From NCBI GenBank assembly GCA_022565155.1, contig JADFKB010000002.1, positions 5,955 through 69,954 of the forward strand: DNA of 64,000 nt, in the 5' to 3' direction. The DNA comes from Chloroflexota bacterium (GTDB taxonomy: Bacteria; Chloroflexota; Dehalococcoidia; DSTF01; RBG-16-68-14). The notes beneath the pieces were generated by a model. That model searched no databases. It saw only the letters and a program-made list of their open reading frames with translations, and had not been told where the DNA came from. Shown piece after piece: positions 5,798-22,978 of the stretch (position 1 is the first letter of the stretch; every line of letters begins with the position of its first letter). The position numbers and the translations under genes were made by a program.

Positions 5798-6000
5798 CGT
5801 GGCACCTTCCGCCTGAGTTCTCTGAGTCCTGTAGGCTGCGATAGTACCTCTCCTGTCGAAACTTGTAAAGCGCCTGTAACCCCCAGCGCTCTTCCGCGTT
5901 AGGGTAGGCAGGAGAGGGATGAGGAGAGGCGGGGCTCCCCTAGTCTCGCTCCCCCAGAGACGCCCGACGAGAGTCAGGGCGTCTTTGTTTTACAGCGATC

Positions 6001-6030
6001 TTGACAGGCCTCTAGCCTCCCTGGTATCCT
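6001..6030 (+). promoter_or_regulatory. sigma70-like promoter (TTGACA-18 bp-TATCCT) for the T-box leader
   Basis: -35 and -10 hexamers about 35 nt upstream of the leader structures. Confidence 0.4.
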
Positions 6031-6036
6031 CACGGA

Positions 6037-6367
6037 ACAATCGAATAGTAATCGGCTGCGATCGGGAAGAGTACGTCGCAAAGCGAGGCTTGCCCGCCAC
6101 CGGCGGGCTTAGAGAGCCGGGTAAGCTGAAAGCCGGCGCCAGCGCTGCGGCCGAATGGCCCCGTGAGCCGCGGACCGAACGTACTTCCACGGAAGGACAA
6201 GTAGGCTCCGCCGGGTTGGGCGCCGTTACCTGAGCCCAAGGTATCGTCCTTCTTCAGAAGGGCTGTACTGAAACGAGATGCCCTTTCATCGAGTAGAAAC
6301 GGGAAGGGCAAGTAGGGTGGCACCGCGAGCCTCTCGCCCCTATAGGGTGAGAGGTTTTTTTGTTTGT
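6037..6367 (+). promoter_or_regulatory. T-box riboswitch leader (Trp-type) with intrinsic terminator, upstream of trpS
   Basis: Conserved T-box sequence AGUAGGGUGGCACCGCG at 6311-6328. The UGGC bulge matches a tRNA with discriminator G (tRNA-Trp). Terminator hairpin cctctcgcccc/gggtgagagg followed by a U-tract at 6355-6367. A candidate UGG specifier lies in GAAUGGCC near 6155. Confidence 0.7.
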
Positions 6368-6407
6368 ATGGAACCAGGAACGAAGAACAAGGAAGCAGGG
6401 ACGAGGA

Positions 6408-7409
6408 ATGAGCGAGGACAAGAAGCGAATACTAACCGGCATCCGGCCCACGGGTGCGTTGCATCTCGGACACTACGCCGGAGCGTTGGAGAACTGGCTG
6501 CGGCTGCAGGACGAGTACGACTGCTTCTTCCTCATCGCCGACTACCAGGTCTCCGACAAGGCCGATGACATCGATTCCGTCCGCGAGGCCGTGCGCGAGA
6601 TCGCGCTCGACTGGCTCGCCGTCGGCCTCGATCCGGAGCGCAGCCACTTCGTAATCGAGAGCCTGATCCCGGAGCACGCGGAGCTGACGTTGTGGCTGAG
6701 CTGGTGGCTGCCACTGGGCATGCTGCAGCGCAACCCGACGCTGAAGGCAGAGATGGCAGAGCTAGGGTCAAATTCGGTACCCGTCGCCTTCTTTACCTAC
6801 CCGGTGATGCAGATGGCGAACATCCTGATGCCGAAGGCGCACCTGGTACCCGTCGGCGAAGACCAGCTGCCGCACATCGAGATGACGCGGGAGGTCGCGC
6901 GGCGGTTCAACCGCCTCTTCGGCGAGGTGTTTCCGGAGCCGGAAGGGCTGGTCGGCCGCGTGCCGCGGCTCGTCGGGCTCGACGGCAACGCGAAGATGGG
7001 CAAGTCGCTGGACAACGCGATCCAGTTGAAGGACGACGCCGAGACCGTGACGAAGAAGGTGAAAGGCATGTTCACCGATCCGACGCGCCTGCGCGCCACC
7101 GACCCGGGCCACCTCGAGGGCAATCCGGTCTTCATGTACCACGATGCCTTCAACCCGGACACAGATGAGGTGCAGGACCTGAAAGATCGCTACGTCGTTG
7201 GCAAAGTCGGCGACGTGGAAGTGAAACAGAAGCTAGCCAATGCCCTGAACGCATTTCTCGATCCGATCCGGGAGCGTCGCGCGCACTACGAAGCGCGGCC
7301 GGAGCTGGTGCGCGAGGCGCTCGCCGCCGGCACCAGCCACGCCAAGCGTATCGCCGAGCAGACGATGGCCGAGGTGCGGAGCGCGTTGCGGCTGAACTAT
7401 CTGGAGTAG
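6408..7409 (+). CDS. trpS: tryptophan--tRNA ligase
   Basis: Class I aaRS HIGH-type motif (TGALHLGHY) and KMGKS. The ATG at 6408 follows an RBS. The longer 6360 ORF starts inside the terminator. Confidence 0.9.
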   Translation: MSEDKKRILTGIRPTGALHLGHYAGALENWLRLQDEYDCFFLIADYQVSDKADDIDSVREAVREIALDWLAVGLDPERSHFVIESLIPEHAELTLWLSWWLPLGMLQRNPTLKAEMAELGSNSVPVAFFTYPVMQMANILMPKAHLVPVGEDQLPHIEMTREVARRFNRLFGEVFPEPEGLVGRVPRLVGLDGNAKMGKSLDNAIQLKDDAETVTKKVKGMFTDPTRLRATDPGHLEGNPVFMYHDAFNPDTDEVQDLKDRYVVGKVGDVEVKQKLANALNAFLDPIRERRAHYEARPELVREALAAGTSHAKRIAEQTMAEVRSALRLNYLE

Positions 7410-8903
7410 ATGATGGCTACCTACACACCAACGCTGGACGAAGCGCGCGCGCTGGCCGATCAGGGCAACCTGGTGCCGGTCTACCGCGAGGTGCCGGCGG
7501 ATCTGGAGACGCCGGTCTCGGCGTTCCTCAAGGTCGCGCGCGGCAAGCATTCATTTTTACTGGAGAGCGTGGAGGGCGGCGAGCGGCTGGCCCGCTATAG
7601 CTTCATCGGCACGGAGCCGTATCGAGTGCTGCGCAACGGGCCGCACGCCGCCCGCAACGAAGAGCCGGGCGATCCGCTCGCTCTTGTCGAGCAGGAGCTC
7701 TCGCGGTTCCAGCTCGCGCCCGTAGCCGGACTGCCCCGCTTTCACGGCGGCGCTGTCGGCTATCTCAGTTACGAAACGATTCGCCACTTCGAGCCGAAAA
7801 TACCCGAGGCCGAATTCGACCCGCTCGGCCTCCCGGACGCGATCTTCCTCTTCATCGACACGCTGCTCGTCTTCGACCACCTGCAGCATGTGATCAAGGT
7901 CGTTTCGCACGTCCGGCTCGACGGCGATATCGATGCCGCCTACCGGCAGGCTGTCTGGCGGATCGAGGAGCTGGTCGGCCGGCTGGCGAAGCCGCTGGCG
8001 GCGTTGCCCTATCGTACAGGCGACGGCGCTACGCCGCCGGGAGAGATCACGTCGAACATGAGCCGCGAGGAGTACGCGCAGAAGGTCGAGCGGATCAAGG
8101 AGTACATCGTCGCGGGCGACTGCATCCAGGTTGTGCTATCGCAGCGGTTCTCCCGGCCGACGACCGCGCACCCGTTCGAGATCTATCGCGCGCTGCGCAC
8201 GATCAACCCGTCGCCGTACATGTTCTATCTGGAGCTTGGCGACGCCCAGGTTGTCGGCGCGTCGCCGGAGATGCTGGTGCGCGTGGAGGACGGCCATATC
8301 GACTACCATCCCATCGCCGGCACGAGGCCGCGCGGCCGCGACGAGGCGGAAGACGCCGCGCTGGAAGCGGAGCTGCGCCGGGACGAGAAGGAGCGGGCGG
8401 AGCATATCATGCTCGTCGATCTGGGGCGGAACGACGTCGGCCGGGTGAGCCAGCCGGGTACTGTCGAAGTGACGCAGCTCATGGACGTGGAGCGCTACTC
8501 GCACGTGATGCACCTCGTCTCGCACGTCACGGGCCGGCTCCGCGACGATATGTCGTCGTACGATGCGCTGCGTGCCAGCTTCCCGGCCGGCACCGTCTCC
8601 GGCGCGCCGAAAGTGCGGGCGATGGAGATCATCGCCGAACTGGAGCGCGACCGGCGCGGCGTCTACGCCGGCGCCGCCGGCTACTTCGACCTTTCGGGCA
8701 ACCTCGATACGGCGATCACGCTGCGCACGATGGTGGTGAAGGACGGCGTCGCGCATGTGCAGGCAGGCGGCGGCATCGTCTACGACAGCGAGCCGGAGAG
8801 CGAGTACCGGGAGACGGAGAACAAGGCGCGAGCGTTGCTGCGCGCGATCGAACAGGCTGAGGAGACAGCGGCGGCGACGCCGCGCGGGAGCCTGGGGTAC
8901 TAG
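7410..8903 (+). CDS. trpE: anthranilate synthase component I
   Basis: 497 aa with chorismate-binding enzyme motifs. Its start abuts the trpS stop (TAGATG). Confidence 0.9.
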
Positions 8904-8905
8904 CG

Positions 8906-10096
8906 ATGCCGGAGCTGCTGTCGCTCGCCCTCTTTGAACGCACCAGCCGCACGCTGGTCGTGAAACGCAAGGACGGCCACCAACCGTTCGCTGGGGCGTG
9001 GCTGCTGCCCGCCGCCGTCGTCGGCAGCGAGGAGTCGGCGGAAGAGGCGTTGGAGCGGCATACCCGTCGCGAGCTGGGCGTCGAGCTGGGCGAGTTGGAG
9101 TTCGCGGAGACGCTCTATCTGGAAGACACGACGCAAGCCGAGCGCTATGTCGTCAACATCTTCAAAGTGCTCGATCACGAGGGTGATCTGCGTTTTCGCG
9201 CAGCCGGCGACTACGACGACGCTCGCTGGCTCAGCGGCGATGAGCTGGCCGGGGTCGGTATCGCGCCTGCGCTGCTCGATTGGCTCCAGGCAGGCCGGCA
9301 TGAGGTGGCGCTGCCCACCGGCCCCGTCCCGGCGCCGGCGGGCGGCGCGACGCCGGACAACCGCCAGGGCTGGAACGCGATCTCGCGGGCGTATCAGGAG
9401 CAGTACCAGATTTCGACCGATAGCCTGGTCTATGGCCCGCGCTGCCCTGACGAATCGGAGCTGCAACTGTTGGGCGACGTCGATGGCCTGCGAGTTGTCG
9501 TCGTCGGCTGTGGCGGCGGGCAGGACTGCATCGTTCTGGCGAAGCAGGGGGCGCAGGTGATCGGCATCGACCTCTCGGACAAGCAGATCGAGTACGGCCG
9601 CCGCCTCGCCGAGCGCGAGCGCGTGGAGGTGACGCTACTGCAGGGCAACGCCGAGGAGCTTATCGGCATTGAGGACGAGAGCCAGGACCTGGCGATCTCC
9701 CTGCACGCGCTGGGCTACGTGGAGCGCATCGACCGCGCGTTCGCCGAGGCGTACCGCGTATTGCGGAGCGACTCAGCGTTTGTGTTCAGTGTGCATCACC
9801 CGTTCTTCGCCTCGCTGGAGGGCGGGCCACCGTACGGCGCGGTGAAGAGCTACTGGCAGCGGGAGCAGGACTGGCAGTGGGACTTCCCGGAGAAGAGCGT
9901 CTCGGCGCGGCTGCGTTCGTGGTACCGGCCGGTGAGCGAATGGTGCTCGCTGCTCACGGATGCCGGCTTCCGCATCGAGCGGCTGCTGGAGCCGCCGCCT
10001 GTGGAAGGCGGCGCGATACCGTGGGACAAGGGCTACAACCTGGAGAAGATGCGCCTGATCCCCGCGACGCTGATCGTAAAGGCGGTGAAGCCGTGA
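8906..10096 (+). CDS. fusion protein: N-terminal NUDIX-like hydrolase domain and C-terminal class I SAM-dependent methyltransferase
   Basis: Degenerate Nudix box GSEESAEEALERHTRRELGVELGE. Methyltransferase motifs VVVGCGGGQD, IGIDLS, DLAIS and LRSDSAFVFSV. Confidence 0.7.
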   Translation: MPELLSLALFERTSRTLVVKRKDGHQPFAGAWLLPAAVVGSEESAEEALERHTRRELGVELGELEFAETLYLEDTTQAERYVVNIFKVLDHEGDLRFRAAGDYDDARWLSGDELAGVGIAPALLDWLQAGRHEVALPTGPVPAPAGGATPDNRQGWNAISRAYQEQYQISTDSLVYGPRCPDESELQLLGDVDGLRVVVVGCGGGQDCIVLAKQGAQVIGIDLSDKQIEYGRRLAERERVEVTLLQGNAEELIGIEDESQDLAISLHALGYVERIDRAFAEAYRVLRSDSAFVFSVHHPFFASLEGGPPYGAVKSYWQREQDWQWDFPEKSVSARLRSWYRPVSEWCSLLTDAGFRIERLLEPPPVEGGAIPWDKGYNLEKMRLIPATLIVKAVKP

Positions 10097-10357
10097 GGGT
10101 GCATGTTCAGGCAATAACCCACGCTGTAGGTCGGGGTCTTCAGACCCTGACAAGGGCCGAGCTTTCCCGCCGCAGGCGGGTCCGCCTCTGGCGGAAGCTC
10201 AACCTCTACAGAGACAGAGGAACGGCAGGGTGTTTTCGGACAATAACCCAAACGGAGGAACGGGGGAATAACCCATGCTGTAGGCCGGGGTCTTCAGACC
10301 CCGACAAGAAGCCAGCGAGGGGTGGAAACCCTTTGCCTAAAGGAGTGGTAGAGAACC
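10097..10357. repeat. REP-like intergenic repeat cluster: two copies of an about 42 bp hairpin unit plus a CCCGCC-N-GGCGGG hairpin
   Basis: aataacccacgctgtaggtcggggtcttcagaccctgacaag at 10112 and aataacccatgctgtaggccggggtcttcagaccccgacaag at 10262. The hairpin gagctttcccgccgcaggcgggtccgcctctggcggaagctc is at 10150-10200. Confidence 0.55.
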
Positions 10358-10921
10358 GTGATCCTGCTGATCGATAACTACGATAGCTTTACCTACAACC
10401 TCTACCAGTACCTGAGCGAGCTGGGGGCGGAGGTGCATACCATCCGCAACGATCAGGCGTCGGCTGCGGAGGTCGAAGCGCTCTCGCCGGAACGGGTCGT
10501 GATCTCGCCGGGGCCCCGCACGCCCAACGAGGCCGGCATCAGCGTCGAGGTCGTCGAGCGGATGGCCGGCCGCGTGCCGATTCTCGGCGTCTGCCTGGGG
10601 CACGAATGCATCGCCGTCGCGTTCGGCGGCGAGATAGCGGGCGCGGGCGAGATCATGCACGGTAAGAGCAGCGCGATTTCGCACGACGGCAAGGGCGTCC
10701 TGCGCGGCCTGCCCGATCCGTTCGACGCGATCCGGTACCACTCGCTGGCCGTGGTGCCGGAGAGCGTGCCGGAGAGCCTGGAGGTGACGGCGCATAGCGA
10801 CAGCGGCGTGATCATGGGCATCCGTCACCGCGAGTACGCCATCGAGGGGATCCAGTTCCATCCGGAGAGCATCATGACCTCCGTGGGGAAGCAGATACTC
10901 CAGAACTTCCTGGAGATGTGA
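10358..10921 (+). CDS. trpG: anthranilate synthase component II (glutamine amidotransferase)
   Basis: Class I glutamine amidotransferase with GVCLGHE catalytic Cys and a C-terminal HPES motif. Confidence 0.9.
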   Translation: MILLIDNYDSFTYNLYQYLSELGAEVHTIRNDQASAAEVEALSPERVVISPGPRTPNEAGISVEVVERMAGRVPILGVCLGHECIAVAFGGEIAGAGEIMHGKSSAISHDGKGVLRGLPDPFDAIRYHSLAVVPESVPESLEVTAHSDSGVIMGIRHREYAIEGIQFHPESIMTSVGKQILQNFLEM

Positions 10922-10987
10922 CGGTTTGCGTGGAGTGTGCAGTACACTCATGTTGATGTACCAGCATTCGTACAAGGACTTTAATCG

Positions 10988-12001
10988 ATGATCCGTGACG
11001 CTATCGCCAAGCTCGTCGACGGCCACGACCTCACCGAAGAGGAAGCTGCCGGCTGTATGGAGCAGATCATGGCGGCAGAGGCGACGCCGGCCCAGTTCGG
11101 CGCGTTCGTCGTCGCGCTGCGGCTGAAGGGCGAGACGGTGGACGAGATCACGGGCATGGCGCGCGTGATGCGTGAGAAGTCGCTCCACGTCGAGGTCGAT
11201 GGCCCGCTGCTGGACACCTGCGGCACCGGCGGCAGCGGCAAGAGCGTCTTCAACGTCAGCACCGCCGCGGCCTTCGTCGCCGCCGGCGCGGGCGTCCGCG
11301 TCGCCAAACATGGCAACCGGGCGATGACCAGCGCCTGCGGCAGCGCCGACGTGCTGGAGGCGCTGGGTGGCAAGATCGATCTGCCGCCGGCAGGCGTGCA
11401 GGCGAGCATCGAGCAGGCCGGCTTCGGCTTCATGTTCGCGCAGGCGTTCCACCCGGCGATGAAGTTCGCCGGCGGGCTGCGGCGCGAGATTGGCGTGCGC
11501 ACCGTCTTCAACATCCTCGGGCCGTTGACCAACCCGGCGGGCGCGGAGGCGCAGGTGCTTGGTGTCAGCGACGTGGCGCTGGCCGAGAAGATGGCGCAGG
11601 TGCTGCTACGCCTGCACACGAAGCACGCGCTGGTCGTCTCCAGCGAAGACGGACTCGACGAGGTGGGCGTGAGCGCGAACACGCGGGTCTACGAGGTGAA
11701 ACAAGGCGCATTCGAGCGCTATATGCTGAATCCTGCCGGCCTCGGCCTCGCGACGCACCCGCTGGAAGAGCTGCGCGGCGGCTCGGCAGAGGAGAACGCC
11801 GCGACGATGCGCCGCGTGCTGGGCGGCGAGGCCGGTGCGCTGCGCGATTTCACGCTGATCAACGCCGCCGCCGCGTTCGTCGCCGCCGACTTAGCAGATG
11901 ACATCACCGCCGGGCTGAAACTGGCGGCGGGGTCTATCGATAGCGGCGCGGCGCTGGAGAAGCTGGAGTCGTGGGTGAAGGTGTCGAATGAGGTGGGGTA
12001 G
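10988..12001 (+). CDS. trpD: anthranilate phosphoribosyltransferase
   Basis: GTGGSGKSVFNVST and KHGNRA motifs. 337 aa. Confidence 0.9.
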   Translation: MIRDAIAKLVDGHDLTEEEAAGCMEQIMAAEATPAQFGAFVVALRLKGETVDEITGMARVMREKSLHVEVDGPLLDTCGTGGSGKSVFNVSTAAAFVAAGAGVRVAKHGNRAMTSACGSADVLEALGGKIDLPPAGVQASIEQAGFGFMFAQAFHPAMKFAGGLRREIGVRTVFNILGPLTNPAGAEAQVLGVSDVALAEKMAQVLLRLHTKHALVVSSEDGLDEVGVSANTRVYEVKQGAFERYMLNPAGLGLATHPLEELRGGSAEENAATMRRVLGGEAGALRDFTLINAAAAFVAADLADDITAGLKLAAGSIDSGAALEKLESWVKVSNEVG

Positions 12002-12028
12002 CAGTATGCAGATGGGAGAGGCGGTGTC

Positions 12029-13015
12029 ATGCAGGAATTAGGGACATTAGAACGGATCGACGCCCGGAAAGTTTGGACGAACGAGGCTCACGATTTCACA
12101 CCGTGGTTAGAAAAAAATATTTCGTTGCTGGGTGCGGCGCTGCAACTCGACCTAGATCTGGTTGAGTCAGAAGTCAGGGTTGGACCGTTCGCCGCAGATC
12201 TTGTGGCGAAAGACGTATCCAATGACAGGTGGGTCGTCATCGAAAACCAGCTAGAAGCGACTGACCACAGTCACCTAGGGCAGCTTCTGACCTATGGAGC
12301 CGGGCTTGACAATGAGGCGGCGGTCTTTGTCTGGATCAGCCCAGAGTTTCGCGACGAACATCGCGCAGCGTTGGATTGGCTCAATGAACACTCGGATGAA
12401 GAGTCGCTCTTTTTTGGCGTCGTGATCGAGTTGCTAAAGATTGACGACTCGCCGCCTGCTCCCAACTTCAGGCTCGTTTCATACCCGAATGACTGGAAGA
12501 AGAGCGGTGGAAGCGCGAGGCCTGCGATGTCGCAGAAGGGCGCGGCGTATAAGCAGTTCTTTGGCGGCCTCCTGAGCCGCTTTAAGGAACGCTATCCAGG
12601 CGAAACGAACGTCGCGACAGCTTCCCCTCAGAACTGGCTCAACCTTAGCATCGGCAAGAGTGGTTTCTTAACGAATTGGAGCTTCACCGGCGACAATCGC
12701 TTCCGTGTGGAGATCTCCATTGATACAGGTGAGGCCGAAATCAATTTAGCGTACTTCCAGCAGTTGCGCCGCAGCAGCGCGGCGATCGAGGAGAAAATCG
12801 GTCACGCTCTGGATTGGGACGAAGTAGAAGGAAAGCGGGTGTGTAGAGTGCACTCCTATTACGACAAGCCGGGTTCGATTTCCAGCAGCGATGAAGAACT
12901 ACGCGCGCTGGAGGAGTGGGCGATAGATGAGATGAAGACGTTTCGAGATGCTCTCCGTCCGGCGATTCAGCAATTGCCGTCCAACGTCTCGCTAAACGAG
13001 ACGGAATCGCCATGA
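12029..13015 (+). CDS. uncharacterised PD-(D/E)XK nuclease-like protein (NucS/DUF91-like N-terminal motif); lower-GC insert
   Basis: GPFAADLVAKDVSNDRWVVIENQLEATDHSHLGQLLTYGAG fits the D...(D/E)x(K/Q)...QxxxY nuclease core. GC by eye is about 52-55% against about 68% in the flanks. The gene overlaps trpC by 4 bp. Confidence 0.55.
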   Translation: MQELGTLERIDARKVWTNEAHDFTPWLEKNISLLGAALQLDLDLVESEVRVGPFAADLVAKDVSNDRWVVIENQLEATDHSHLGQLLTYGAGLDNEAAVFVWISPEFRDEHRAALDWLNEHSDEESLFFGVVIELLKIDDSPPAPNFRLVSYPNDWKKSGGSARPAMSQKGAAYKQFFGGLLSRFKERYPGETNVATASPQNWLNLSIGKSGFLTNWSFTGDNRFRVEISIDTGEAEINLAYFQQLRRSSAAIEEKIGHALDWDEVEGKRVCRVHSYYDKPGSISSSDEELRALEEWAIDEMKTFRDALRPAIQQLPSNVSLNETESP

Positions 13016-13854
13016 CTGACACTACTGAAACCGGCACGATCCTCGACCGCATCGTTGCCGACAAGCGCGAGGAGTTGGAGAAGCGACAGCGCGAGGAGCC
13101 GATCGACGCGCTCCAGCGGCGCATCCGCGAGCTGGACGAGCAGTGGAGCCTGGCCGAGGCGATCCTCGAGGGCCCGCGCGGCCCGCACGCCGGCGGCAAG
13201 CGTGTCCAGCTCATCGCCGAGATCAAGAAGGCCTCGCCTTCGAAGGGGAGGCTCGTCGCGGAGCTGGAGCACCGGTCGCTCGCCCGTACGTATACCATAG
13301 GAGGCGCTGCTGGCATCTCCGTCGTTACGGAGCGCAAGCACTTCCTGGGCGAGGTGCAGTTCATGCTGGACGTAAGAATGGTGCTTAAGGGCTACTACCC
13401 CGGCGGCCGGCCATCGATCCTGCGCAAGGACTTTCTTTTCGACCCCTACCACCTTTGGGAAGCGCGGGCCTACGGGGCCGACGCGGTCCTGCTCATCGCC
13501 GCGATTCTTGAGGGCAGCCAACTGCGCGACCTGATCGACCAGGCGCGGGAGCTGGATATGGAATCACTGATCGAAGTGCACGATGAAGCGCAGGTGGAGC
13601 GCGCTGTCGAGGCCGGCGCGGACCTGATCGGCATCAACAACCGCGATCTGCGCACGTTCAACGTCGACCTGGCGACGACAGAGCGGCTGCGTCCGCAGAT
13701 TCCCGACGACAAGGTCGTCATCAGCGAGAGCGGCATCTCCACCACCGCTGACGTCGAGCGGCTGGCCGACTGTGGGGTGCATGCGGTGTTGGTCGGAGAG
13801 GCGCTGATCACGGCCAGTCATGTTCGCGAGAAAATGAGCGAGGTGCTGTTGTGA
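13012..13854 (+). CDS. trpC: indole-3-glycerol phosphate synthase
   Basis: IAEIKKASPSKG, ISVVTE and GINNRDL motifs. Confidence 0.9.
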   Translation: MTDTTETGTILDRIVADKREELEKRQREEPIDALQRRIRELDEQWSLAEAILEGPRGPHAGGKRVQLIAEIKKASPSKGRLVAELEHRSLARTYTIGGAAGISVVTERKHFLGEVQFMLDVRMVLKGYYPGGRPSILRKDFLFDPYHLWEARAYGADAVLLIAAILEGSQLRDLIDQARELDMESLIEVHDEAQVERAVEAGADLIGINNRDLRTFNVDLATTERLRPQIPDDKVVISESGISTTADVERLADCGVHAVLVGEALITASHVREKMSEVLL

Positions 13855-14567
13855 CGAAGGTGAAGATCTGCGGCTGCATGCGCGTGCAGGACGCGATGGC
13901 GGCGAAAAAGGCCGGCGCGGAGTTCGTCGGCCTCGTCTTCGCGCCCAGCAGCCGGCGCAAGCTCTCGGTCGAACGGGCACAGGCGATCGTCGTGGCGCTG
14001 GCCGACGGCGAACGTAGGCAGCCGCGGCCGCCGCTCGTGTCGGTCAGCGGGGACGATAACATCGAAACCTGGTTTCAGCACGGCGCGGAGGCGTTGGAAC
14101 GCATCCTGGCGCGCAGGCGGCCGCTGACAGTTGGAGTGTTCGAGGATCAGCCGCTGGAGGAGATAAACTCGATCGCAGAGGCCTGTGGCCTGGACATGGT
14201 GCAACTGAGCGGCCATGAATCGTGGGCCGATTGCGTACTGGCCAATCGACAGGTCGTCAAGACGGTGGAGACACCGGCAGGCATCGCCGCCGAGGATGTT
14301 ATGGATGGCATGGAGACTGGTACGGCTATCGCCTGTCTGTTAGACGGCAGCCGTGGCCAGGGACAGCCAGTCAACCTTGAAGTCGCCGCGGCTATCGCCG
14401 CAGAACTGCCGGTTTGGCTGGCCGGAGGCCTGACGCCGGAGAACGTATCGGCCACCATACGGCGGGTGCAGCCCTGGGCAGTCGACGTCTCGAGCGGCGT
14501 GGAGACGGACGGCGTCAAGGACGCGAAGAAGATCCACGCCTTCGTCTCGGCGGCGAAGGGGCAGTAG
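13851..14567 (+). CDS. trpF: phosphoribosylanthranilate isomerase
   Basis: MTKVKICG N-terminus and GLVF motif. GTG start overlaps the trpC stop. Confidence 0.85.
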
Positions 14568-14568
14568 C

Positions 14569-15795
14569 GTGATGGCTACCGCCCGCCCTGACGAACGCGG
14601 CCGTTACGGCGCATTTGGCGGCCAATTCGTGCCGGAGACGCTGATGACGGCGCTCGGCGAGCTGGAGCGCGCCTTCGCCGAGGCGCAGGACGACGCCTCG
14701 TTCCAAGAGGAGCTGGCCGCTTTGCTGCGCGACTTCGTCGGCAGGCCGACGCCGCTCTATCTGGCGGCGAACCTCTCGAAGCGGCTGAGCGGCACGCAGG
14801 CGAACGGTAGCCCGCGCGTGCGCATCTATCTCAAGCGCGAAGACCTGGCTCACACCGGCGCCCACAAGATCAACAACGCAGTCGCCCAGGGCCTGCTGGC
14901 ACGCCGGCTGGGCAAGAACCGCATCATCGCGGAGACGGGCGCTGGCCAGCACGGCGTGGCGGCGGCGACCGTCTGCGCCATGTTCGGCCAGGAGTGCATC
15001 GTCTACATGGGTGCGGAGGACGTCCAGCGGCAGGCGCTGAACGTCTTTCGGATGAAGCTACTGGGAGCGGAGGTGCGCATCGTCGACAGCGGCAGCCGCA
15101 CGCTGAAGGACGCGATCAACGAGGCGATCCGCGATTGGGTGACGAACGTTGAGACGACACACTACCTGCTGGGCAGCGCCGTTGGCCCGCACCCCTATCC
15201 GTTGATGGTGCGCGAGTTCCAGTCTGTCATCGGCAGCGAGGCGCGCGAGCAGATCATGGCCGTGGAAGGCCGGCTGCCCGACTACGCCGTCGCCTGCGTC
15301 GGCGGCGGCTCGAACGCGATCGGACTCTTCCATCCGTTCTACGACGACGAGGCCGTTCGCTTCATCGGCGTTGAGGCCGCGGGCGATGGCATCGAGACGA
15401 ATCGCCACGCAGCGCCGCTAGCGGCCGGACGGCCGGGGGTGCTGCATGGGGCGTACTCGTTCCTGATGCAGGATGAGGGAGGCCAGATCGAGGAGGCGCA
15501 CAGCATCTCGGCCGGCCTCGACTACCCGGGCGTGGGGCCGGAGCACTCCTTCTACAAAGAGAGCGGCCGCGCGGAGTACGCGAGCGCAACCGACGACGAG
15601 GCGCTGGCGGCGTTCCGGCTGCTGAGCGAGACGGAGGGGATCATTCCGGCGCTGGAGCCGGCCCACGCACTGGCACACGTGGCGAAGCTGGTACGGGATA
15701 TACCGGACGATTCTATCGTGCTCGTAGGCCTGTCCGGCCGCGGTGATAAGGACATGGAGATCGTGGCTGGCGCACTCGGCGTCCAGTTAACGTAG
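14569..15795 (+). CDS. trpB: tryptophan synthase beta chain
   Basis: PLP-lysine motif HTGAHKINN and GAGQHG. Confidence 0.92.
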
Positions 15796-15797
15796 TC

Positions 15798-16355
15798 GTG
15801 CAGACCGTGGACTTGCATTCCGATGACCAATCGGCGGTCGAACAGGCTGCGGCGCTGCTTGTCGATCTACTGCCGGAAGGCTGGTCAACCATGGAGTCGG
15901 CGCTGCGGGAGGTGGCGGAATCGTTGCCGGATGAGCGGATCAGCCGCATCGCCAGGGAAGGAGAAGAGGTGGTCGGCTGGGTGAGCGGGCAGGAGGCGTA
16001 TATCGGCCACACTTGGGAGCTGCACCCGCTGGTGGTGAAGCGCGAGCGCCACAGACAGGGCATCGGCCGCGCGCTCGTTGCCGACCTGGAGGAGCGCGTG
16101 CGCGAACGCGGCGGCCACACCGTCTACCTGGGTACCGACGACGAACGCGGCGAGACGAGCCTGGCGAACATCGAGCTTTACCCAGACCCGCTCGAGCACG
16201 CGGCGCGTATCACCAACCCCGGCGGCCACCCATACGAGTTCTACCAACACGTGGGGTACACTATCGTCGGTGTTCTGCCAGACGCCAACGGCTTCGGCCG
16301 GCCCGACATCTTCATGGCGAAGCGTATCGCGCCGCTCGCCGCGCCACAGACCTAG
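15798..16355 (+). CDS. GNAT acetyltransferase, AAC(6')-like
   Basis: RQGIGRALV and LGTDDE motifs, similar to aminoglycoside 6'-N-acetyltransferases. Confidence 0.65.
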   Translation: MQTVDLHSDDQSAVEQAAALLVDLLPEGWSTMESALREVAESLPDERISRIAREGEEVVGWVSGQEAYIGHTWELHPLVVKRERHRQGIGRALVADLEERVRERGGHTVYLGTDDERGETSLANIELYPDPLEHAARITNPGGHPYEFYQHVGYTIVGVLPDANGFGRPDIFMAKRIAPLAAPQT

Positions 16356-16364
16356 GAGGGCGTC

Positions 16365-17219
16365 ATCGAACCTGAATCTCGCTACTACAACTCCCAGCGG
16401 CTGAAGCTGCACTACGCCGTCTGGGGTGACGAATCGAAGCCGCCGCTGCTGCTGATCCACGGCGGCCGCGACCACGTCCGAAACTGGGACTACGTTGCGG
16501 AGGCGATGGTCGATGAGTACTGCGTCTACGCGCCGGACCTGCGCGGTCACGGCGACAGCGACTGGTCGATCGGCGGGCAGTACAGCATGACGGAGTTCGT
16601 GCTCGACGTCTCTGTGCTGGCCGATGTGCTCGACCGCGATCCGCTGACGATCATCGGCCACTCGCTGGGCGGCGGCGTCGCGCTCCAGTACGCCGGCGTT
16701 TGCCCGGAGCGGGTGGTGAAGGTCGTCTCGATTGAAGGGCTTGGCCCGCCGATGCAGCCACCACGCTCGGCGCACGAACGCATGAAGGAGTGGATCGGCC
16801 ACATGCGCCAGTTCGAGCAGCGCAAGCCGCGCCGCTACCCGTCGATCGACGCCGCCGTCACGCGGATGGAAGAAGAGAACCCGCACCTCTCGGAGGAGAT
16901 GGCGCGCCACCTCACCGTTCACGGCCTGCGCCAGAACGACGATGGCACCTACACCTGGAAGTTCGACAACTACGTGCGCATCCATTCGCCGTACCAGTTC
17001 AACATCGAGGACGCGCGCGACATTTGGAACCAGATCCGCTGTCCGGTGCTACTGGTGCGCGGAGATGAAAGCTGGGCGGGCGACCCGGAGAAAGACGGCC
17101 GCGCCAGCGCGTTTCACGACTACTGCTTGGTAACGATTAAGGATGCTGGCCACTGGGTGCACCACGACCGGCTAGAGGAGTTCCTAAAGGTTTCGCGGCG
17201 GTTCCTGCTGGGAGAGTAA
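16365..17219 (+). CDS. alpha/beta hydrolase fold protein (no canonical start codon in frame after the upstream stop)
   Basis: HGGRDH and GHSLGG nucleophile elbow. The homologous sequence begins right after the TAG at 16353, with an AGGAGG at 16354-16359 and then ATC at 16365. Confidence 0.65.
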   Translation: MEPESRYYNSQRLKLHYAVWGDESKPPLLLIHGGRDHVRNWDYVAEAMVDEYCVYAPDLRGHGDSDWSIGGQYSMTEFVLDVSVLADVLDRDPLTIIGHSLGGGVALQYAGVCPERVVKVVSIEGLGPPMQPPRSAHERMKEWIGHMRQFEQRKPRRYPSIDAAVTRMEEENPHLSEEMARHLTVHGLRQNDDGTYTWKFDNYVRIHSPYQFNIEDARDIWNQIRCPVLLVRGDESWAGDPEKDGRASAFHDYCLVTIKDAGHWVHHDRLEEFLKVSRRFLLGE

Positions 17220-17257
17220 GGCGGCTCGCGCTTCTAACGTAGGCGCGGGCCTTCACC

Positions 17258-17311
17258 TGCCCGCCGACAGGCGGGGACCCTCGCGAAGCCAGTCGGGGTC
17301 TAACGACCCCG
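17258..17311. terminator. pair of GC-rich hairpins between convergent genes (cccgccgacaggcggg and cggggtctaacgaccccg)
   Basis: Same hairpin families as at 10130, 10160, 10283 and 29133. Lies downstream of both the hydrolase (+) and DUF2064 (-) genes. Confidence 0.45.
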
Positions 17312-17313
17312 AT

Positions 17314-18018
17314 CTACGGTAGAGCCTTCACTGTTGCTTGGGGTTGTAGCTGGGGATCGAGCATGCGCAGCGTATGCTTCGGCGTCCAGCCTCTCGTAGC
17401 AAACTCGAGCGTCGCCAGGTCGGTGCGAAGACGCTGCAGATCCTCCGGCGTGTCCACGTCGTAGAGCGTGTCGAGCAAGCTGACGCGCAGCCCGGCCGCC
17501 TTCGCATGGCGCAGCGTCGACGATAGCACGGCGCTCGTCCCCCAATCGACGCCTTCGAACAGCCTGGGCTGCGGCGTCCGGCAGGCGAGCAGGTAGTAGC
17601 CGCCGTCGGCGCTGGGGCCGAGGCAGAGGTCGAGCGCGTCCAGCTCGCGCAGGGCTGCGCGCAGGTGGCTTGGTAGGAGAAGAGGCGCATCTGTGCCGAT
17701 CATGACCAGCGGTGCATGGCCCGCGCTCTCCACACGCTGTAGCGCCGCCAGCATCCGCTCGCCCAGGCCGATGCCTTCCTGGGGAATGACAATAGCCCGG
17801 CCTGCGAACTCGGCTGTCGCCCAGGCAACCGCCGAAGCAGGTGTGACAGCGAGATACACGGAGCCCAGGTCCGCCGCCAGCGAGACCTGTACCGCGTCGT
17901 TCAGGAACGCCTGCTGCAACCGAAGACAGGCTTCGGCTGAAAGCGCCGGACGCAGCCTCGTCTTACCCTCGCCCAGGCGAGGCGCGCGCGCCATGACGAT
18001 GACAGCAGGATTAGTCAT
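17314..18018 (-). CDS. DUF2064 / TIGR04282-family nucleotidyltransferase-like (putative glycosyltransferase) protein
   Basis: MTNPAVIVMARAPRLGEGKTRL N-terminus and a GIGLGERM motif. The ORF-track N-terminal extension runs into the upstream gene and is not believed. Confidence 0.7.
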   Translation of the reverse strand: MTNPAVIVMARAPRLGEGKTRLRPALSAEACLRLQQAFLNDAVQVSLAADLGSVYLAVTPASAVAWATAEFAGRAIVIPQEGIGLGERMLAALQRVESAGHAPLVMIGTDAPLLLPSHLRAALRELDALDLCLGPSADGGYYLLACRTPQPRLFEGVDWGTSAVLSSTLRHAKAAGLRVSLLDTLYDVDTPEDLQRLRTDLATLEFATRGWTPKHTLRMLDPQLQPQATVKALP

Positions 18019-19000
18019 CAGCGGCCAGCTCTCCGACGAGTACCAGGGGCTGGCGGCCGCGTTCGTCCTCCGGCCAGGCGGTTGTCGCTTCGTTGGCGTC
18101 GCCGCTCCTCTGCGGGCGGTGCTTCGTGAAGTACTCGTCGCACCAGAGGCAGACGTTGCCCAGCTCACGAATACGCTTACGGGCGTATTCAAGGTCAATG
18201 CCGGTCGTGACGCCCATCGCCGCGGGGTCGCCGCGATTCAGCGCCTCCCACATCGGATCGCCGCGGTGCCGGTCGAGGATGTCGAGCAGCGGCTCTTGGG
18301 CGACGTCCCCCAATGCCTCGACCGTGCCCGGGCAGCACGGGTAGACGGAGGTGAGCTGGATCGCGGTCTCCTGTCGATCGCTGCCGTCATCCAGAAAGCC
18401 GAGCGCGCCCGACCAGAGGGCGCAGACGTTGTGTTCCGGGTCATCCTTCCATATGCCGTTGCGCAGCGCGCGGCCGCGGGCCCAGAGACCGCCCAGCCAG
18501 AGGTCCGGCGTCGCGCCCCAGAACGAGAACGTGCGCAGGGCCGGCTTCTTTGCCGAGGGATCCCCGACGTCGACCTCGAGCAGGCCGCGGCTGACGAGCA
18601 GGGTGTGTAGCCGTTCGCGCAGGCCGTCGCGGCGGGCGTGGTAGGGGTCCTGGCTGGCGATGCTGATGTGTTGAACACCTGCGTCCAGCAGGCGGTCCAA
18701 TGCATCCGCGTCCAGCAGATCACCGTTCGTTTGGAGGGCGAGGTGGGTGCCGCTGCCGTACTTCCGGCGAGCCTTACGAAGGATATGAAGCAGCATCTCG
18801 GGTTCCGTCAACGGCTCGCCGCCGCTGAGGATCAGCCGGTTGGTGTCAGGCAGATGTTCGATCACCGCGTCTGCCTCGCTTAGGGTGACCGTCGGGCCGC
18901 CCGGGCGCGAGTGGTTATAGCAGTGAGCGCAGTACTGGTTGCAGCGGTGGGTGAAGACCCAGTAGATCGATTCCATGATCACAAGCCTATGATAGATCAT
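18011..19000 (-). CDS. radical SAM protein, possibly with extra Cys-rich C-terminal cluster motifs
   Basis: CNQYCAHCY (CxxxCxxC) near the N-terminus, plus C-terminal YPCCPG and CLWCDEY. Confidence 0.8.
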   Translation of the reverse strand: MIYHRLVIMESIYWVFTHRCNQYCAHCYNHSRPGGPTVTLSEADAVIEHLPDTNRLILSGGEPLTEPEMLLHILRKARRKYGSGTHLALQTNGDLLDADALDRLLDAGVQHISIASQDPYHARRDGLRERLHTLLVSRGLLEVDVGDPSAKKPALRTFSFWGATPDLWLGGLWARGRALRNGIWKDDPEHNVCALWSGALGFLDDGSDRQETAIQLTSVYPCCPGTVEALGDVAQEPLLDILDRHRGDPMWEALNRGDPAAMGVTTGIDLEYARKRIRELGNVCLWCDEYFTKHRPQRSGDANEATTAWPEDERGRQPLVLVGELAADD

Positions 19001-19024
19001 CTCGATGTTAGGTGATCGGCAATA

Positions 19025-19699
19025 CTAGCGGACGTGTTGGTAGAAGCGGCCGAGCCAGCGCGGAGAGACCGGCAGGAAGTAGAGCAGCTGCACCGTCCAC
19101 CAGGAGGCCCAGGTGCGCCAGAAGCCGCCGTGACGCCACCGGCGCGACGAGGGTACAACGGTCTGCGCCAGCGCCGCGAGCTTGCCAACGCGTCGCATTC
19201 GAATAACCAGGTTCGCGTCTTCCATGATCTGCCAGTCCGCGAAGCCTCCCAGCCGCTCGAAGAAGTCGCGGCGGACGAAGATCGCAGAGTCGCCGTAGAC
19301 GAGGCCGCGGCCTCCGAACCGAAGCAGGTCGTAGATGACGGCGATGAAGACCTGTTGCAGCGTCCGGCCGAATCGGACGCGGAAAAAGCCGCCGATGACT
19401 TCGGGATCGCGAAGCGCGTCTTCGATTGCGGCCAGGGCGTCGGGCGGCAGCCGGACGTCGGCGTGGAGGAAGAGGAGCGTGTCGCCGGTGGCCCGCGCCG
19501 CGCCGGCGTTGAGCTGCGCCCCGCGCCCCGCGCGCGAGCGCACGATCGTCGTGTGCGGCGCGGCGAGTTCGACCGTGCCGTCGTCGCTGCCGCCGTCCGC
19601 CACGATCACCTCGGAGGGGTGGAGGCGCTGGAGCCGGCGCAGCGCGTCTTCGATGACGGACGCTTCGTTCAGCGTGGGGATGATGATCGAGCAGCGCAT
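19025..19699 (-). CDS. family 2 glycosyltransferase (TIGR04283-like)
   Basis: IIIPTLNE start, ADGGSDDGT and a DxD-like LHADV motif. Confidence 0.75.
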   Translation of the reverse strand: MRCSIIIPTLNEASVIEDALRRLQRLHPSEVIVADGGSDDGTVELAAPHTTIVRSRAGRGAQLNAGAARATGDTLLFLHADVRLPPDALAAIEDALRDPEVIGGFFRVRFGRTLQQVFIAVIYDLLRFGGRGLVYGDSAIFVRRDFFERLGGFADWQIMEDANLVIRMRRVGKLAALAQTVVPSSRRWRHGGFWRTWASWWTVQLLYFLPVSPRWLGRFYQHVR

Positions 19700-19766
19700 A
19701 GACGTTCGCCGGTTGGCCTAGCTGAGGTGATACGCGACAATGCCAGTGTACCAGGAAGGAGCGCGC

Positions 19767-20486
19767 ATGGAGACCGCTGCCCCCGCCTCGGAGCGCGGGA
19801 TCGACCCGAAGCCTTGGGGCATTCCGGCGATCGCCGCCGTGCTCGCGATTCCCGTGGCGTTGTTCGCCTCCAGCTTCCTCGTTGACGCCCCCGATGATCT
19901 CACCACAGGCGAGATCGTGGTAGGGCTCGTCAGCACCCTAGTATTCAAAGATGCGCTGTTCATCGGTCTCGTGGCCGCGTTCGCCGTGTGGCGATATCGG
20001 CTCGGCTGGCAGGGACTCGGGCTCCGGCCCTTCGATCGAAGTCTCTGGTGGCTGCCGGTCGTCGCTGCCGCTGCTGCGCTGGTCACCGTGATCGTCTATA
20101 GCGCCATTCTCGTCGGTCTCGGATTCGACCAACCCGAGCAGAGAGAGGTGCAGACGTTTTTCGAGAGCAATGCCGCGTTGCCTCTTACCGGCTTCGCGCT
20201 CGTGATCATGGCGCCGCTCTCCGAGGAGATCTTCTTCCGCGGCTTCATCTTCCCCGGCCTCATCCGGCCTCTCGGCCTCGCCGGCGGGATGGTGGCGAGC
20301 GGCATCCTCTTCGGCGCCTTCCATATCACGGGCTCGGACACCGTCGCTCTCTTGCTGCCATTCAGTGCCATCGGCGCTCTCTTCTGCTGGCTCTACTATC
20401 GCACCGGTTCGCTCTGGCCGAGCATTATCACCCACCTCCTCTTCAACTCCGTTGGCTTCGCCGTCGGCGCTATCGGAGCGCAGTAA
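19767..20486 (+). CDS. CPBP family intramembrane metalloprotease (CAAX protease/Abi-like)
   Basis: SEEIFFRGF, FGAFH and HLLFN motifs. The ATG at 19767 follows an AGGAAGGAG RBS. The stop overlaps the trpA ATG (TAATG). Confidence 0.8.
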   Translation: METAAPASERGIDPKPWGIPAIAAVLAIPVALFASSFLVDAPDDLTTGEIVVGLVSTLVFKDALFIGLVAAFAVWRYRLGWQGLGLRPFDRSLWWLPVVAAAAALVTVIVYSAILVGLGFDQPEQREVQTFFESNAALPLTGFALVIMAPLSEEIFFRGFIFPGLIRPLGLAGGMVASGILFGAFHITGSDTVALLLPFSAIGALFCWLYYRTGSLWPSIITHLLFNSVGFAVGAIGAQ

Positions 20487-21277
20487 TGAACCGGATTGAG
20501 CAGGCGTTCGACCGCGCCAAGCGCGAAGAGCGCGTGGCGCTGATCGGCTACCTGACGGCGGGCTACCCGGAGCCGGACGCGACGGTGGGTCTGGCGCAGG
20601 CGCTCGTCGCCGGCGGCGCCGACGCGATCGAGCTGGGGCTGCCGTTTTCGGACCCGCTGGCGGACGGCGTGACGATGCAGCGCGCGAACCTGAAGGCGCT
20701 GGAGCAGGGGATGACGGTCGCCCGCAGCCCGGGGCTGATCAAGGATCTGCGCGCGGCGGGGGTTGTCATTCCCCTCATCGTTATGACATACTACAATCCC
20801 ATCCTCGCCTACGGCCAGGATGGGTTTGTCCAGGATGTCGCCGCGGCGGGAGCGGACGGCTTGATCGCCGTCGATCTGCCGCCGGAAGAGGCGGAGGAGC
20901 TCTCTGGCCACTGTCACGCCGAGGGGGTGGCGTTCGTTCCCCTCTTGGCGCCGACATCGACCGATGAGCGGATCGCCCTCGTGACGCGGCGGGCCTCCGG
21001 CTTCATCTACTGCGTCAGCGTAGCTGGCGTGACCGGCGCCAGGAAGGCGCTGCCCCCGGAGCTGGGGGAGTACCTGCAGCGTGTGCGACGGCAGACATCG
21101 CTGCCGCTGGCCGTGGGCTTCGGTATCTCCCGCCGGGAGCACATCGAAGCGCTGCGCGGCCATGCGGACGCCGTCATCGTCGCCAGCGCGATCGTCGATC
21201 TCATCGAGGCGACGCCTCGTGAGGAGAGGGAACAAGCGGTTAGAGAGTATGTGGAGGTGCTCACCGGTCGTGGGTAG
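20486..21277 (+). CDS. trpA: tryptophan synthase alpha chain
   Basis: AGADAIELGLPFSDPLADG and GFGIS motifs. Confidence 0.9.
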   Translation: MNRIEQAFDRAKREERVALIGYLTAGYPEPDATVGLAQALVAGGADAIELGLPFSDPLADGVTMQRANLKALEQGMTVARSPGLIKDLRAAGVVIPLIVMTYYNPILAYGQDGFVQDVAAAGADGLIAVDLPPEEAEELSGHCHAEGVAFVPLLAPTSTDERIALVTRRASGFIYCVSVAGVTGARKALPPELGEYLQRVRRQTSLPLAVGFGISRREHIEALRGHADAVIVASAIVDLIEATPREEREQAVREYVEVLTGRG

Positions 21278-21420
21278 GTCTGAGTCTAACGGTGATGCGC
21301 AGCGACGCTGCGCGATCGTGCCGCGCGCGCTCAGCGTGCTTGCGGCCGGCGCCTATGACGCAGCCCTCCCGGCCGGCACCTTTGGCCGCTAGGCCGGAGC
21401 TGCTAGGGAGCAAGGCCGGA

Positions 21421-21822
21421 ATGGGCATGCGCTGTCGAGGTATCCGCGGGGCGACCACCGTTGACGTGAACACCCCCGAGGCGATCCTTGAGGCCACCGC
21501 CGAGCTGCTGGCGGAGATGATGCGGGCCAACGATCTGTTGATCGACGATGTGGCCAGCGCCTACTTCACCACCACTCGCGACCTGAACGCCGAATTCCCT
21601 GCCGTGGCTGCGAACAAGCTGGGCTGGACGGATGTCGCCTTGCTCTGCGGCCACGAGATGGAGGTTCCCGGCAGCCTGCCACTGTGCCTGCGCATCCTTC
21701 TCCACGTCAATACGGAGAAGGCGGCGCGGGACCTAGCGCACGTATATCTGCGGGGGGCGACAGTTCTCCGCCCAGATCGAACGTATGCGAATGACGAAGT
21801 AACGGAGGCGAAATCGCCATGA
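21421..21822 (+). CDS. aroH: chorismate mutase, AroH class
   Basis: RGIRGATTV N-terminus and TRDLNAEFPA motif typical of AroH-type chorismate mutases. Confidence 0.75.
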   Translation: MGMRCRGIRGATTVDVNTPEAILEATAELLAEMMRANDLLIDDVASAYFTTTRDLNAEFPAVAANKLGWTDVALLCGHEMEVPGSLPLCLRILLHVNTEKAARDLAHVYLRGATVLRPDRTYANDEVTEAKSP

Positions 21823-22862: not shown

Positions 22863-22978
22863 CACTCGCTACGACGCTTATCAACGCGGGGCAGCCATCC
22901 GGCTGCCCCGCGGGCGATCATGGCTGGCGGTGCGTGCGGGTGGTGCGTCTGCTATCCTGCCCTGGAGGTGAGCGCCAG

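Follow-up and report, generated by a model that had tools for sequence, protein, structure and literature searches.

A trpS-headed tryptophan gene cluster with a predicted T-box leader and passenger genes probably acquired stepwise in Dehalococcoidia

Organization of the locus

The tryptophan (Trp) biosynthesis locus described here lies in a 64,000-nucleotide stretch of DNA from an uncultured Chloroflexota bacterium of the class Dehalococcoidia (GenBank assembly GCA_022565155.1, contig JADFKB010000002.1, positions 5,955 to 69,954), which is called the window below and to which all coordinates refer. The locus consists of a predicted Trp T-box leader, the tryptophan-tRNA ligase gene trpS, the trp genes and a number of non-trp genes placed among them. 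An initial annotation had described it as a trp operon interrupted at three junctions. Gene identities were checked with Pfam and NCBIfam, and gene junctions were read straight from the sequence; every gene named in that annotation was upheld, as was the gene order. All seven trp genes (E, G, D, C, F, B and A) are on the plus strand in canonical order. They do not form one contiguous trpEGDCFBA transcription unit, as non-trp genes occupy the E/G and D/C junctions, and between trpB and trpA there are 4,690 bp, including a 2.4-kb antisense cassette.

The unit headed by the T-box begins with trpS (6408-7409, 333 amino acids; PF00579; TIGR00233 with 286.6 bits against a cutoff of 176.75), the start of which was set from the reading frame. 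Its stop codon abuts the start of trpE (anthranilate synthase I, 7410-8903) in the sequence TAGATG (7407-7412), as had been reported. Then follow a gene for a degenerate NUDIX domain fused to a class I S-adenosylmethionine (SAM) methyltransferase (NUDIX-MT, 8906-10096; identified by Pfam, comparison and a structural model), a structured non-coding spacer of 261 bp (10097-10357), trpG (glutamine amidotransferase, 10358-10921), trpD (10988-12001), a gene for a DUF4268 protein (12029-13015), trpC (13012-13854), trpF (13851-14567), trpB (14569-15795), a gene for a GNAT acetyltransferase that is AAC(6')-like but under the family cutoffs (15798-16355), and an alpha/beta hydrolase gene (16365-17219), all on the plus strand. 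The DUF4268 gene and trpC overlap by 4 nt (ATGA), and trpC overlaps trpF (GTGA). Apart from the 261-bp spacer, gaps and overlaps between the genes of this unit range from 0 to 66 nt. The lower-GC, nuclease-like gene that had been noted between trpD and trpC corresponds to the DUF4268 gene, whose GC content is 0.544 compared with 0.64-0.69 in its neighbours and whose predicted fold is NucS-like.

Downstream of the hydrolase gene, an intergenic region with three GC-rich hairpins (17220-17313, not assigned to a strand) separates the plus-strand genes from three genes on the minus strand. These encode a DUF2064/TIGR04282 glycosyltransferase-like protein (17314-18018), a radical SAM protein of non-ArsS type (18011-19000) and a GT2/TIGR04283 glycosyltransferase (19025-19699); the stop of the radical SAM gene and the start of the DUF2064 gene overlap by 8 nt. 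Back on the plus strand there is a gene for a CPBP (Rce1-like) intramembrane protease (19740-20486), for which the ATG at 19767, preceded by the ribosome-binding site AAGGAG, is the likelier start. Its stop overlaps the start of trpA (20486-21277) in the sequence TAATG. The 4.7-kb trpB-trpA block of the initial annotation, with the GNAT, hydrolase and CPBP genes and the convergent cassette, and the coupling of CPBP to trpA were thus borne out, whereas a few coordinates had to be changed: trpS starts at 6408, DUF2064 at 18018 instead of 18198, and the hydrolase most likely at the ATC at 16365. The 261-bp spacer was added, and the aromatic gene cluster was found to continue beyond 21277 with an aroH-type chorismate mutase gene (21292-21822, identified by Pfam and NCBIfam) and a gene for 3-deoxy-D-arabino-heptulosonate 7-phosphate (DAHP) synthase with a ferredoxin-like regulatory domain (21819-22862). 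No tRNA genes were found in the window.

For comparison, a one-genome-per-species scan with TrpD yielded 80 loci, all from Chloroflexota and mostly from metagenome-assembled genomes (MAGs) of Dehalococcoidia, with a best identity of 77%, and the window proteins were mapped to these loci by tblastn. Complete Dehalococcoidia chromosomes (OZ25xxxx and OZ24xxxx) are among the loci L011-L062. Relatives are denoted by L numbers where they must be told apart. An assembly artefact as the source of the gene order was rejected, the independent assemblies L085 and L086 showing the same order.

The T-box leader

A sigma-70-like promoter, TTGACA-N18-(TG)TATCCT, was found on the plus strand at 6001-6030. 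Its -35 and extended -10 elements are conserved in five relatives (L085, L001, L004, L002 and L008), with divergence of the spacer between the hexamers. The promoter is followed by a Trp T-box leader (6049-6344, plus strand), in agreement with the initial annotation, which had placed one ahead of trpS. In a sensitive scan of 5700-6500 this segment gave a full-model match (positions 1-219) to Rfam family RF00230 with 87.3 bits and an E-value of 1.7e-19. A default Rfam scan of the whole window returned no match, because 87.3 bits is under the gathering score, and the T-box was seen only in E-value mode. Stem I carries large insertions, as does the region after Stem II, and these lower the score.

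The functional elements of a T-box could be located individually. The specifier loop in Stem I reads GAA-UGG-C (6153-6159), with the Trp codon UGG at 6156-6158. The T-box sequence AGGGUGGCACCGCG (6314-6327), with the core GGUGGCACCGCG (6316-6327), contains the bulge UGGC. Bacterial tRNA-Trp has a G73 discriminator, which fits a UGGN bulge with C or U as the last base. The intrinsic terminator (6327-6361, plus strand) is a hairpin of 13 bp (6327-6357) followed by seven U residues; its 5' arm, CUCUCGCCCC, is at the same time the 3' arm of the antiterminator, and the two structures are therefore mutually exclusive.

The same elements recur in the relatives. Exactly one T-box core motif was present in each of 40 related loci, as in the window, and it was always located before the first gene of the operon, which was trpS, a TrpB-like gene followed by trpS, or trpE. 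The motif GAA-UGG-N occurred in all 39 full-length leaders of the relatives. The last base of the UGGN bulge was C in 33 and U in 8 of the 41 leaders, all of which end in a hairpin and a U-run despite differing stem sequences. Because the related loci always have a single UGG T-box heading the operon, T-box control of the operon appears to be ancestral in these Dehalococcoidia.

Two further observations concern the surroundings of the leader. Just upstream of the promoter, at 5957-5992, there is a hairpin of the form GACGCCC-N12-GGGCGTC, followed by TTTGTTTT. It is 88-91% conserved in L085 and L001 despite the lack of a preceding plus-strand gene, and may mark the end of a small RNA or act as an insulating terminator. 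In many relatives a TrpB-like pyridoxal phosphate enzyme, approximately 30% identical to TrpB, is encoded between the T-box and trpS (L002, L004, L006, L008, L010, L019, L022, L025, L058, L068, L072, L075 and L087). The window and L001 do not have this gene ahead of trpS.

Comparison with related loci

The gene order of the window is shared by its nearest relatives. L001 has an identical order, including the DUF4268 gene and the whole trpB-trpA block, and L004 follows the window up to the end of its contig, which lies after the CPBP gene. L002 has all genes of the window except DUF4268, and L008 has NUDIX-MT, the hydrolase and the CPBP-trpA-aroH string without the radical SAM cassette. With protein identities of 60-89%, L001, L002 and L004 are separate species-level genomes and do not belong to one population. 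In six more distant loci (L023, L030, L050, L054, L066 and L073) a plain T-box-trpEGDCFBA arrangement was found.

In neighbour-joining trees of concatenated Trp proteins the window grouped with L001 (99% bootstrap), then with L004 (100%) and then with L002 (100%), and the gains of the non-trp genes were nested on these trees. The position of trpS at the head and the CPBP-trpA pairing were the oldest. They were followed by the gain of NUDIX-MT, common to a large monophyletic group, then by that of the hydrolase (from L008 inward), of the GNAT gene and the radical SAM cassette (from L002 inward), and of DUF4268, found only in the window, L001 and L004. The 261-bp repeat element appears to be the latest gain, after DUF4268. 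The GC content at third codon positions (GC3) is native for NUDIX-MT, GNAT, hydrolase, radical SAM, GT2 and CPBP. These results suggest that the lineage picked up its non-trp genes one after another, as passengers, rather than in three recent insertions.

To count passengers, the open reading frames (ORFs) in the gaps between trp genes were clustered and representatives were scanned with Pfam; an intercalated segment was counted if it was at least 240 bp long, and a locus if it had at least four trp genes (n = 62). At least one intercalated segment was present in 50 of the 62 loci, at almost all junctions other than trpS-trpE. Passengers between trp genes are thus the norm in this lineage. One example is a DUF6290/RHH antitoxin with a ParE toxin between trpG and trpD: the antitoxin was found in 26 loci, and the toxin in 24 of those. 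In those genomes the pair lies downstream of the Trp T-box; in the nearest relatives it is located at 5534-5954 (L085), 9521-9935 (L001) and 9473-9947 (L002). The window has, unusually, lost it; the trpG-trpD spacer is 66 bp long (10922-10987) and gave no tblastn trace. Other relatives carry an AAA_33/Zeta-like kinase between trpC and trpF or an IS200-like Y1 transposase between trpF and trpB, and glyoxalase, cupin, SDR and HAD phosphatase genes were also found as passengers.

A still more interrupted operon was seen in the more distant L087 (3479-17176), with the order TrpB-like, 23S_rRNA_IVP, trpS, trpE, NUDIX-MT, trpG, DUF6290, 196-residue ORF, trpD, trpC, 431-residue ORF, trpF, 209-residue ORF, Y1 transposase, trpB.

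The NUDIX-methyltransferase fusion

NUDIX-MT is a clade-wide member of the operon with native composition. About 28 relatives carry it, with identities reaching down to 37%, and in all of them it lies between trpE and trpG; one member, 49% identical, occupies the same position on a 94-kb metagenome contig. Its distance to trpG is usually -1 to 14 nt, and the two genes overlap in L001, L002, L008 and L085. The family comprises at least 120 clusters at 90% identity, of which the organism-named ones come from Chloroflexi or Dehalococcoidia; no characterised member was found among these clusters.

The Pfam match to the NUDIX domain is weak (37 bits), although the Nudix fold is predicted with confidence. 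Instead of the Nudix box GX5EX7REUXEEXGU the protein has G-x5-A...RELGVELG, and in an alignment of 26 members the box was degenerate throughout, with variable catalytic positions. The methyltransferase half has the features of a class I SAM-dependent enzyme: it matches Methyltransf_11 in Pfam (1.3e-21), contains motif I as VxGCGGGQD, and in the same alignment G201, G203-205, D222 and several tryptophans were invariant. A Foldseek search with the predicted model (predicted local distance difference test score, pLDDT, 90.7) found only generic small-molecule methyltransferases (3g5l, 3bkw and ToxA, E approximately 1e-14 to 1e-17) and gave no functional assignment.

These properties raise the possibility that the conserved passengers, NUDIX-MT and CPBP in particular, are working parts of the Trp or aromatic metabolism of this lineage and not neutral hitch-hikers. 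The constant position of NUDIX-MT and its tight coupling to trpG over such sequence divergence would fit such a role, as would a large family apparently confined to this group and the invariance of the SAM-binding motif and of the tryptophans. CPBP, for its part, is coupled to trpA in five genomes whose sequence extends to trpA, and in L004 the contig ends right after it. Against this, the passengers show no homology to enzymes of established pathway role, the nearest structures of NUDIX-MT are generic, its Nudix catalytic box is degenerate, and genes as unrelated as toxin-antitoxin, kinase, transposase, glyoxalase, cupin, SDR and HAD genes are also long-lived in these operons. The conserved position of NUDIX-MT is suggestive of a pathway-linked role; position alone is, however, weak evidence in this lineage because toxin-antitoxin pairs and kinases are also kept in place. 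We consider functional passengers unlikely, although they are the most probable of the alternatives considered. The narrower proposal that NUDIX-MT is a previously undescribed, dedicated component of tryptophan or anthranilate metabolism or of its control is similarly doubtful; in one version of it, a ligand-sensing pseudo-Nudix domain may gate a methylation that acts on either a pathway intermediate or anthranilate synthase.

The DUF4268 gene

The GC3 value of the DUF4268 gene is 0.64 in the window and 0.63-0.64 in L001 and L004, whereas that of every other gene is 0.80-0.90. The DUF4268 family is very large and occurs in many phyla. A homologue with 62% identity is located on metagenome contig Ga0315281_10002595 (L081, 1378-12337) beside a defence-type island with genes for radical SAM, Cap17-like, QueC, SMODS, Ogg-HhH, PfkB and HEPN_Swt1/DUF499 proteins; a trp linkage of this homologue was considered and rejected, as it adjoins these defence genes.

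A sequence search of the DUF4268 protein against the PDB gave noise only, and its likeness to NucS came from a fold search. In the predicted model (pLDDT 86.5) the N-terminal domain, with a predicted PD-(D/E)XK fold, superposes on the nuclease domain of NucS/EndoMS (2vld and 5gke; probability 1.0, root mean square deviation 2.0-2.6 Å over approximately 105 residues). Residues E48, D57, E72 and Q74 are invariant, a glutamine being at the position of the PD-(D/E)XK lysine. Composition and predicted fold suggest that DUF4268 is the one convincing foreign acquisition of the locus, a putative nuclease, and its distribution indicates that it was probably gained once, in the common ancestor of the three species-level genomes that carry it.

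The 261-bp spacer and the extent of the T-box unit

The spacer between NUDIX-MT and trpG contains a 45-bp direct repeat, AATAACCCAYGCTGTAGGYCGGGGTCTTCAGACCCYGACAAG, in two copies (10110-10154 and 10264-10308) that are 91% identical, and each copy holds a hairpin of the form GGTCGGGGTC-TTCA-GACCCTGAC. The fold z-score of the spacer relative to shuffled sequence is -4.7. It occurs in the window and in L086, a metagenome contig 99% identical to it, and is absent from the other relatives. The 99%-identical population is recorded under ENA ERZ23486771. The possibility that it is a remnant of the toxin-antitoxin pair was rejected, as no blastn or tblastx similarity was detected. It looks like an insertion of the repetitive extragenic palindromic (REP) or miniature inverted-repeat transposable element (MITE) type.

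Several observations bear on how far transcription from the T-box promoter would extend. In 23 of 25 relatives trpS and trpE lie tightly together. Within the unit from trpS to the hydrolase gene, plus-strand terminators were not above chance (9 weak ones compared with 8.3 expected). Sigma-70-like promoters above threshold were found neither in the 261-bp spacer nor before DUF4268, GNAT, hydrolase or CPBP, and a search of the operon interior for further regulatory RNAs or attenuators gave no Rfam match at E<0.1. The reading that one Trp T-box governs trpS and trpE through trpB finds good support in the comparison with relatives.

A different arrangement is conceivable, in which the T-box controls only trpS and trpE, perhaps with NUDIX-MT, and promoters in the 261-bp spacer and perhaps at other junctions drive trpG to trpB. 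The spacer does disrupt the translational coupling of NUDIX-MT and trpG found in relatives, it is highly structured, and the toxin-antitoxin pair between trpG and trpD of the relatives belongs to a class whose members usually carry an autoregulated promoter of their own. On the other hand, the spacer contains neither a pair of promoter-like hexamers nor a terminator (hairpin with U-run), it is very recent and so would not be part of an ancestral regulatory design, and trpG would lose Trp-responsive control, no other leader having been detected. We regard such split control as improbable, less likely than a functional role of the passengers, and retain a single T-box unit.

The convergent cassette and the trpA module

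The hairpins at 17220-17313, between the hydrolase gene and the minus-strand cassette, have z-scores of -3.0 on the plus and -2.5 on the minus strand and are the probable end of both convergent transcription units. In the cassette (17314-19699, minus strand) the products matching TIGR04282 (181 against a cutoff of 134) and TIGR04283 (215 against 182), both of which are 'arsenosugar' families, flank the radical SAM gene. The radical SAM protein reached no NCBIfam cutoff (best, NirJ, with 52 bits against 515) and is not of the ArsS type, so that the arsenosugar set of TIGR04282, TIGR04283 and ArsS is not complete here.

The start of the neighbouring alpha/beta hydrolase gene is unusual. For its conserved N-terminus there is no ATG, GTG or TTG start in the window; the frame runs from an in-frame TAG, which is the stop of the upstream gene and lies inside TAGGAGG, to a conserved ATC located 5-9 nt past the Shine-Dalgarno sequence AGGAGG. 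The same arrangement was found at 16353-16367 in the window, at about 15990-16005 in L001, 15385-15400 in L002 and 15366-15383 in L004, and the hydrolase of L008 has a normal ATG start. Either ATC initiation or TAG read-through would account for this, ATC at 16365 being the most likely start.

The CPBP gene lies directly 5' of trpA in L001, L002, L008, L035 and L052. In L035 a CPBP-trpA-aroH-DAHP synthase-ScpA string sits upstream of the T-box-trpS-EGDCFB string, and CPBP-trpA-aroH-DAHP synthase can for this reason be regarded as a separate, movable unit. Because the hairpin cluster and the 2.4-kb antisense cassette separate trpA from the T-box unit, trpA is probably not under T-box control. 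A candidate promoter, TTGGCC-N17-GACAAT, was found in front of CPBP (19713-19741, plus strand); its sequence CGCGACAAT is conserved in the four closest genomes. The trpA unit probably starts at this weak promoter and probably ends at a 12-bp GC hairpin (22885-22912, plus strand, z-score -4.6) behind the DAHP synthase gene.

Discussion

Taking the anatomy of the locus, its T-box features, synteny, order of gains and composition as observed, we infer from them where the transcripts begin and end, that tRNA-Trp acts by antitermination and that the trpA unit is independent. The explanation that we favour, with a probability of about 0.72 for the whole, is that the region comprises three transcription units and that its passengers were gained stepwise. 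The first unit would run on the plus strand from approximately 6037 to approximately 17300, starting at the conserved sigma-70-type promoter and entering the T-box leader. With charged tRNA-Trp the 6327-6361 terminator would form and halt transcription. Uncharged tRNA-Trp would pair through its anticodon with UGG at 6156-6158 and through its 3' end with the UGGC bulge, the antiterminator would be stabilised, and RNA polymerase would read trpS through trpB and on into the GNAT and hydrolase genes. Starvation for Trp would therefore increase the synthetase along with six of the seven enzymes of the pathway. The second unit would be the convergent GT2-rSAM-DUF2064 cassette (rSAM, radical SAM) on the minus strand, and the third, CPBP-trpA-aroH-DAHP synthase on the plus strand, would be transcribed from its own probable promoter, most likely outside T-box control. 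The proposal of the initial annotation that the leader attenuates trpS together with the downstream trp genes thus holds as far as trpB, given the close packing and the lack of an internal terminator, promoter or Rfam element, and probably fails for trpA.

Some of the data do not fit this explanation easily. The T-box score of 87.3 bits is below the Rfam gathering score of 93, and the base after the specifier is C and not the usual purine, most relatives having A. The hairpins at 17220-17313 lack a U-tract, so that read-through toward trpA is possible. The candidate promoter of the third unit matches the consensus at 8 of 12 positions. Chloroflexota promoters are poorly characterised, and the 261-bp spacer could conceal a promoter or processing site invisible to a consensus scan; more generally, every transcript boundary was derived from sequence.

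Read as a model, the initial annotation amounts to a canonical trpEGDCFBA operon into which three foreign segments (NUDIX-MT, the nuclease-like gene, the 4.7-kb block) were recently inserted and then domesticated into the transcript. This model, the least probable of those considered, is for the most part refuted by synteny: the uninterrupted T-box-trpEGDCFBA of distant Dehalococcoidia does imply that the extra genes were inserted on a deep time scale, and the low GC3 and defence-island homologue of DUF4268 agree with a foreign origin, but the synteny comparison by which recent insertion was to be judged found the same genes at the same three junctions in L001 and L004 and at two of them in L002, NUDIX-MT keeps its junction in some 28 relatives at identities down to 37-49%, it and the GNAT, hydrolase, radical SAM, GT2 and CPBP genes have native GC3, CPBP-trpA is an old and separately located pair, and the nested gains point to sequential events over a long time. 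What stands of it is the foreign origin of DUF4268, as an old shared event; at the other two junctions synteny and native GC3 speak against foreign insertion. Stepwise gain remains the preferred reading.

In Firmicutes such as Bacillus subtilis trpS is T-box-regulated and monocistronic. As in those bacteria, a Trp T-box stands here directly upstream of the tryptophan-tRNA ligase gene and would act by transcription attenuation; the difference is that trpS is the promoter-proximal gene of an approximately 11-kb unit with trpEGDCFB. The aromatic supraoperon of B. subtilis, in which trp genes are nested with chorismate mutase and DAHP synthase genes and regulated by TRAP, likewise joins trp genes physically with genes of the general aromatic pathway. 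Its gene order differs, however, and in the present case the aro genes accompany trpA in a module of their own and the regulator is a T-box, not TRAP.

T-box control of trp genes in Chloroflexota is already known: T-boxes on trpE and on a trpB-like gene of Dehalococcoides, which belongs to the same bacterial class as the present locus, were reported in 2008 (Wels et al. 2008, PMC2494555). The T-box trp operons of Lactococcus lactis and other Firmicutes, and those of Dehalococcoides, also have a UGG T-box and a terminator/antiterminator switch before an anthranilate synthase operon (PMC2494555). In contrast to those, trpS comes first here, placing synthetase and pathway under one leader, trpA is detached, and several non-trp genes are embedded. 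No description of a shared trpS-trpE T-box operon was found in the papers that were searched. Trp operons with inserted unknown genes, and with aroH or aroG by trpA, were described by Xie et al. (2003), as cited in Kagan et al. (2008, PMC2395257). As far as that citation goes, those operons share with the present loci non-trp genes between trp genes, including at trpB-trpA and trpF-trpB, and a DAHP synthase or aro gene right after trpA. The scale here differs from what is cited there, with 50 of 62 loci and almost every junction except trpS-trpE affected, and among the passengers are toxin-antitoxin pairs, a nuclease-like gene and transposases.

The locus is thus a variant of a known design, a trpS-headed Dehalococcoidia T-box trp operon with a detached trpA-aro module, and its mechanism is not new. 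What it adds is a natural case in which one leader, a sensor of uncharged tRNA-Trp, would drive both the charging enzyme and the greater part of the pathway, and a datable series of passenger gains and losses (methyltransferase fusion, toxin-antitoxin pair, nuclease-like gene, transposase and repeat elements) in a biosynthetic operon with its regulation apparently intact. This should be of use in the annotation of Dehalococcoidia MAGs and in studies of operon evolution, and it marks NUDIX-MT as a conserved uncharacterised family that deserves biochemical study.

Flanking gene

Upstream of the T-box promoter and divergent from it lies a gene on the minus strand (3896-5797) whose product is a solute-binding protein of family 5 that has a type I dockerin domain at its C-terminus, an unusual pairing.

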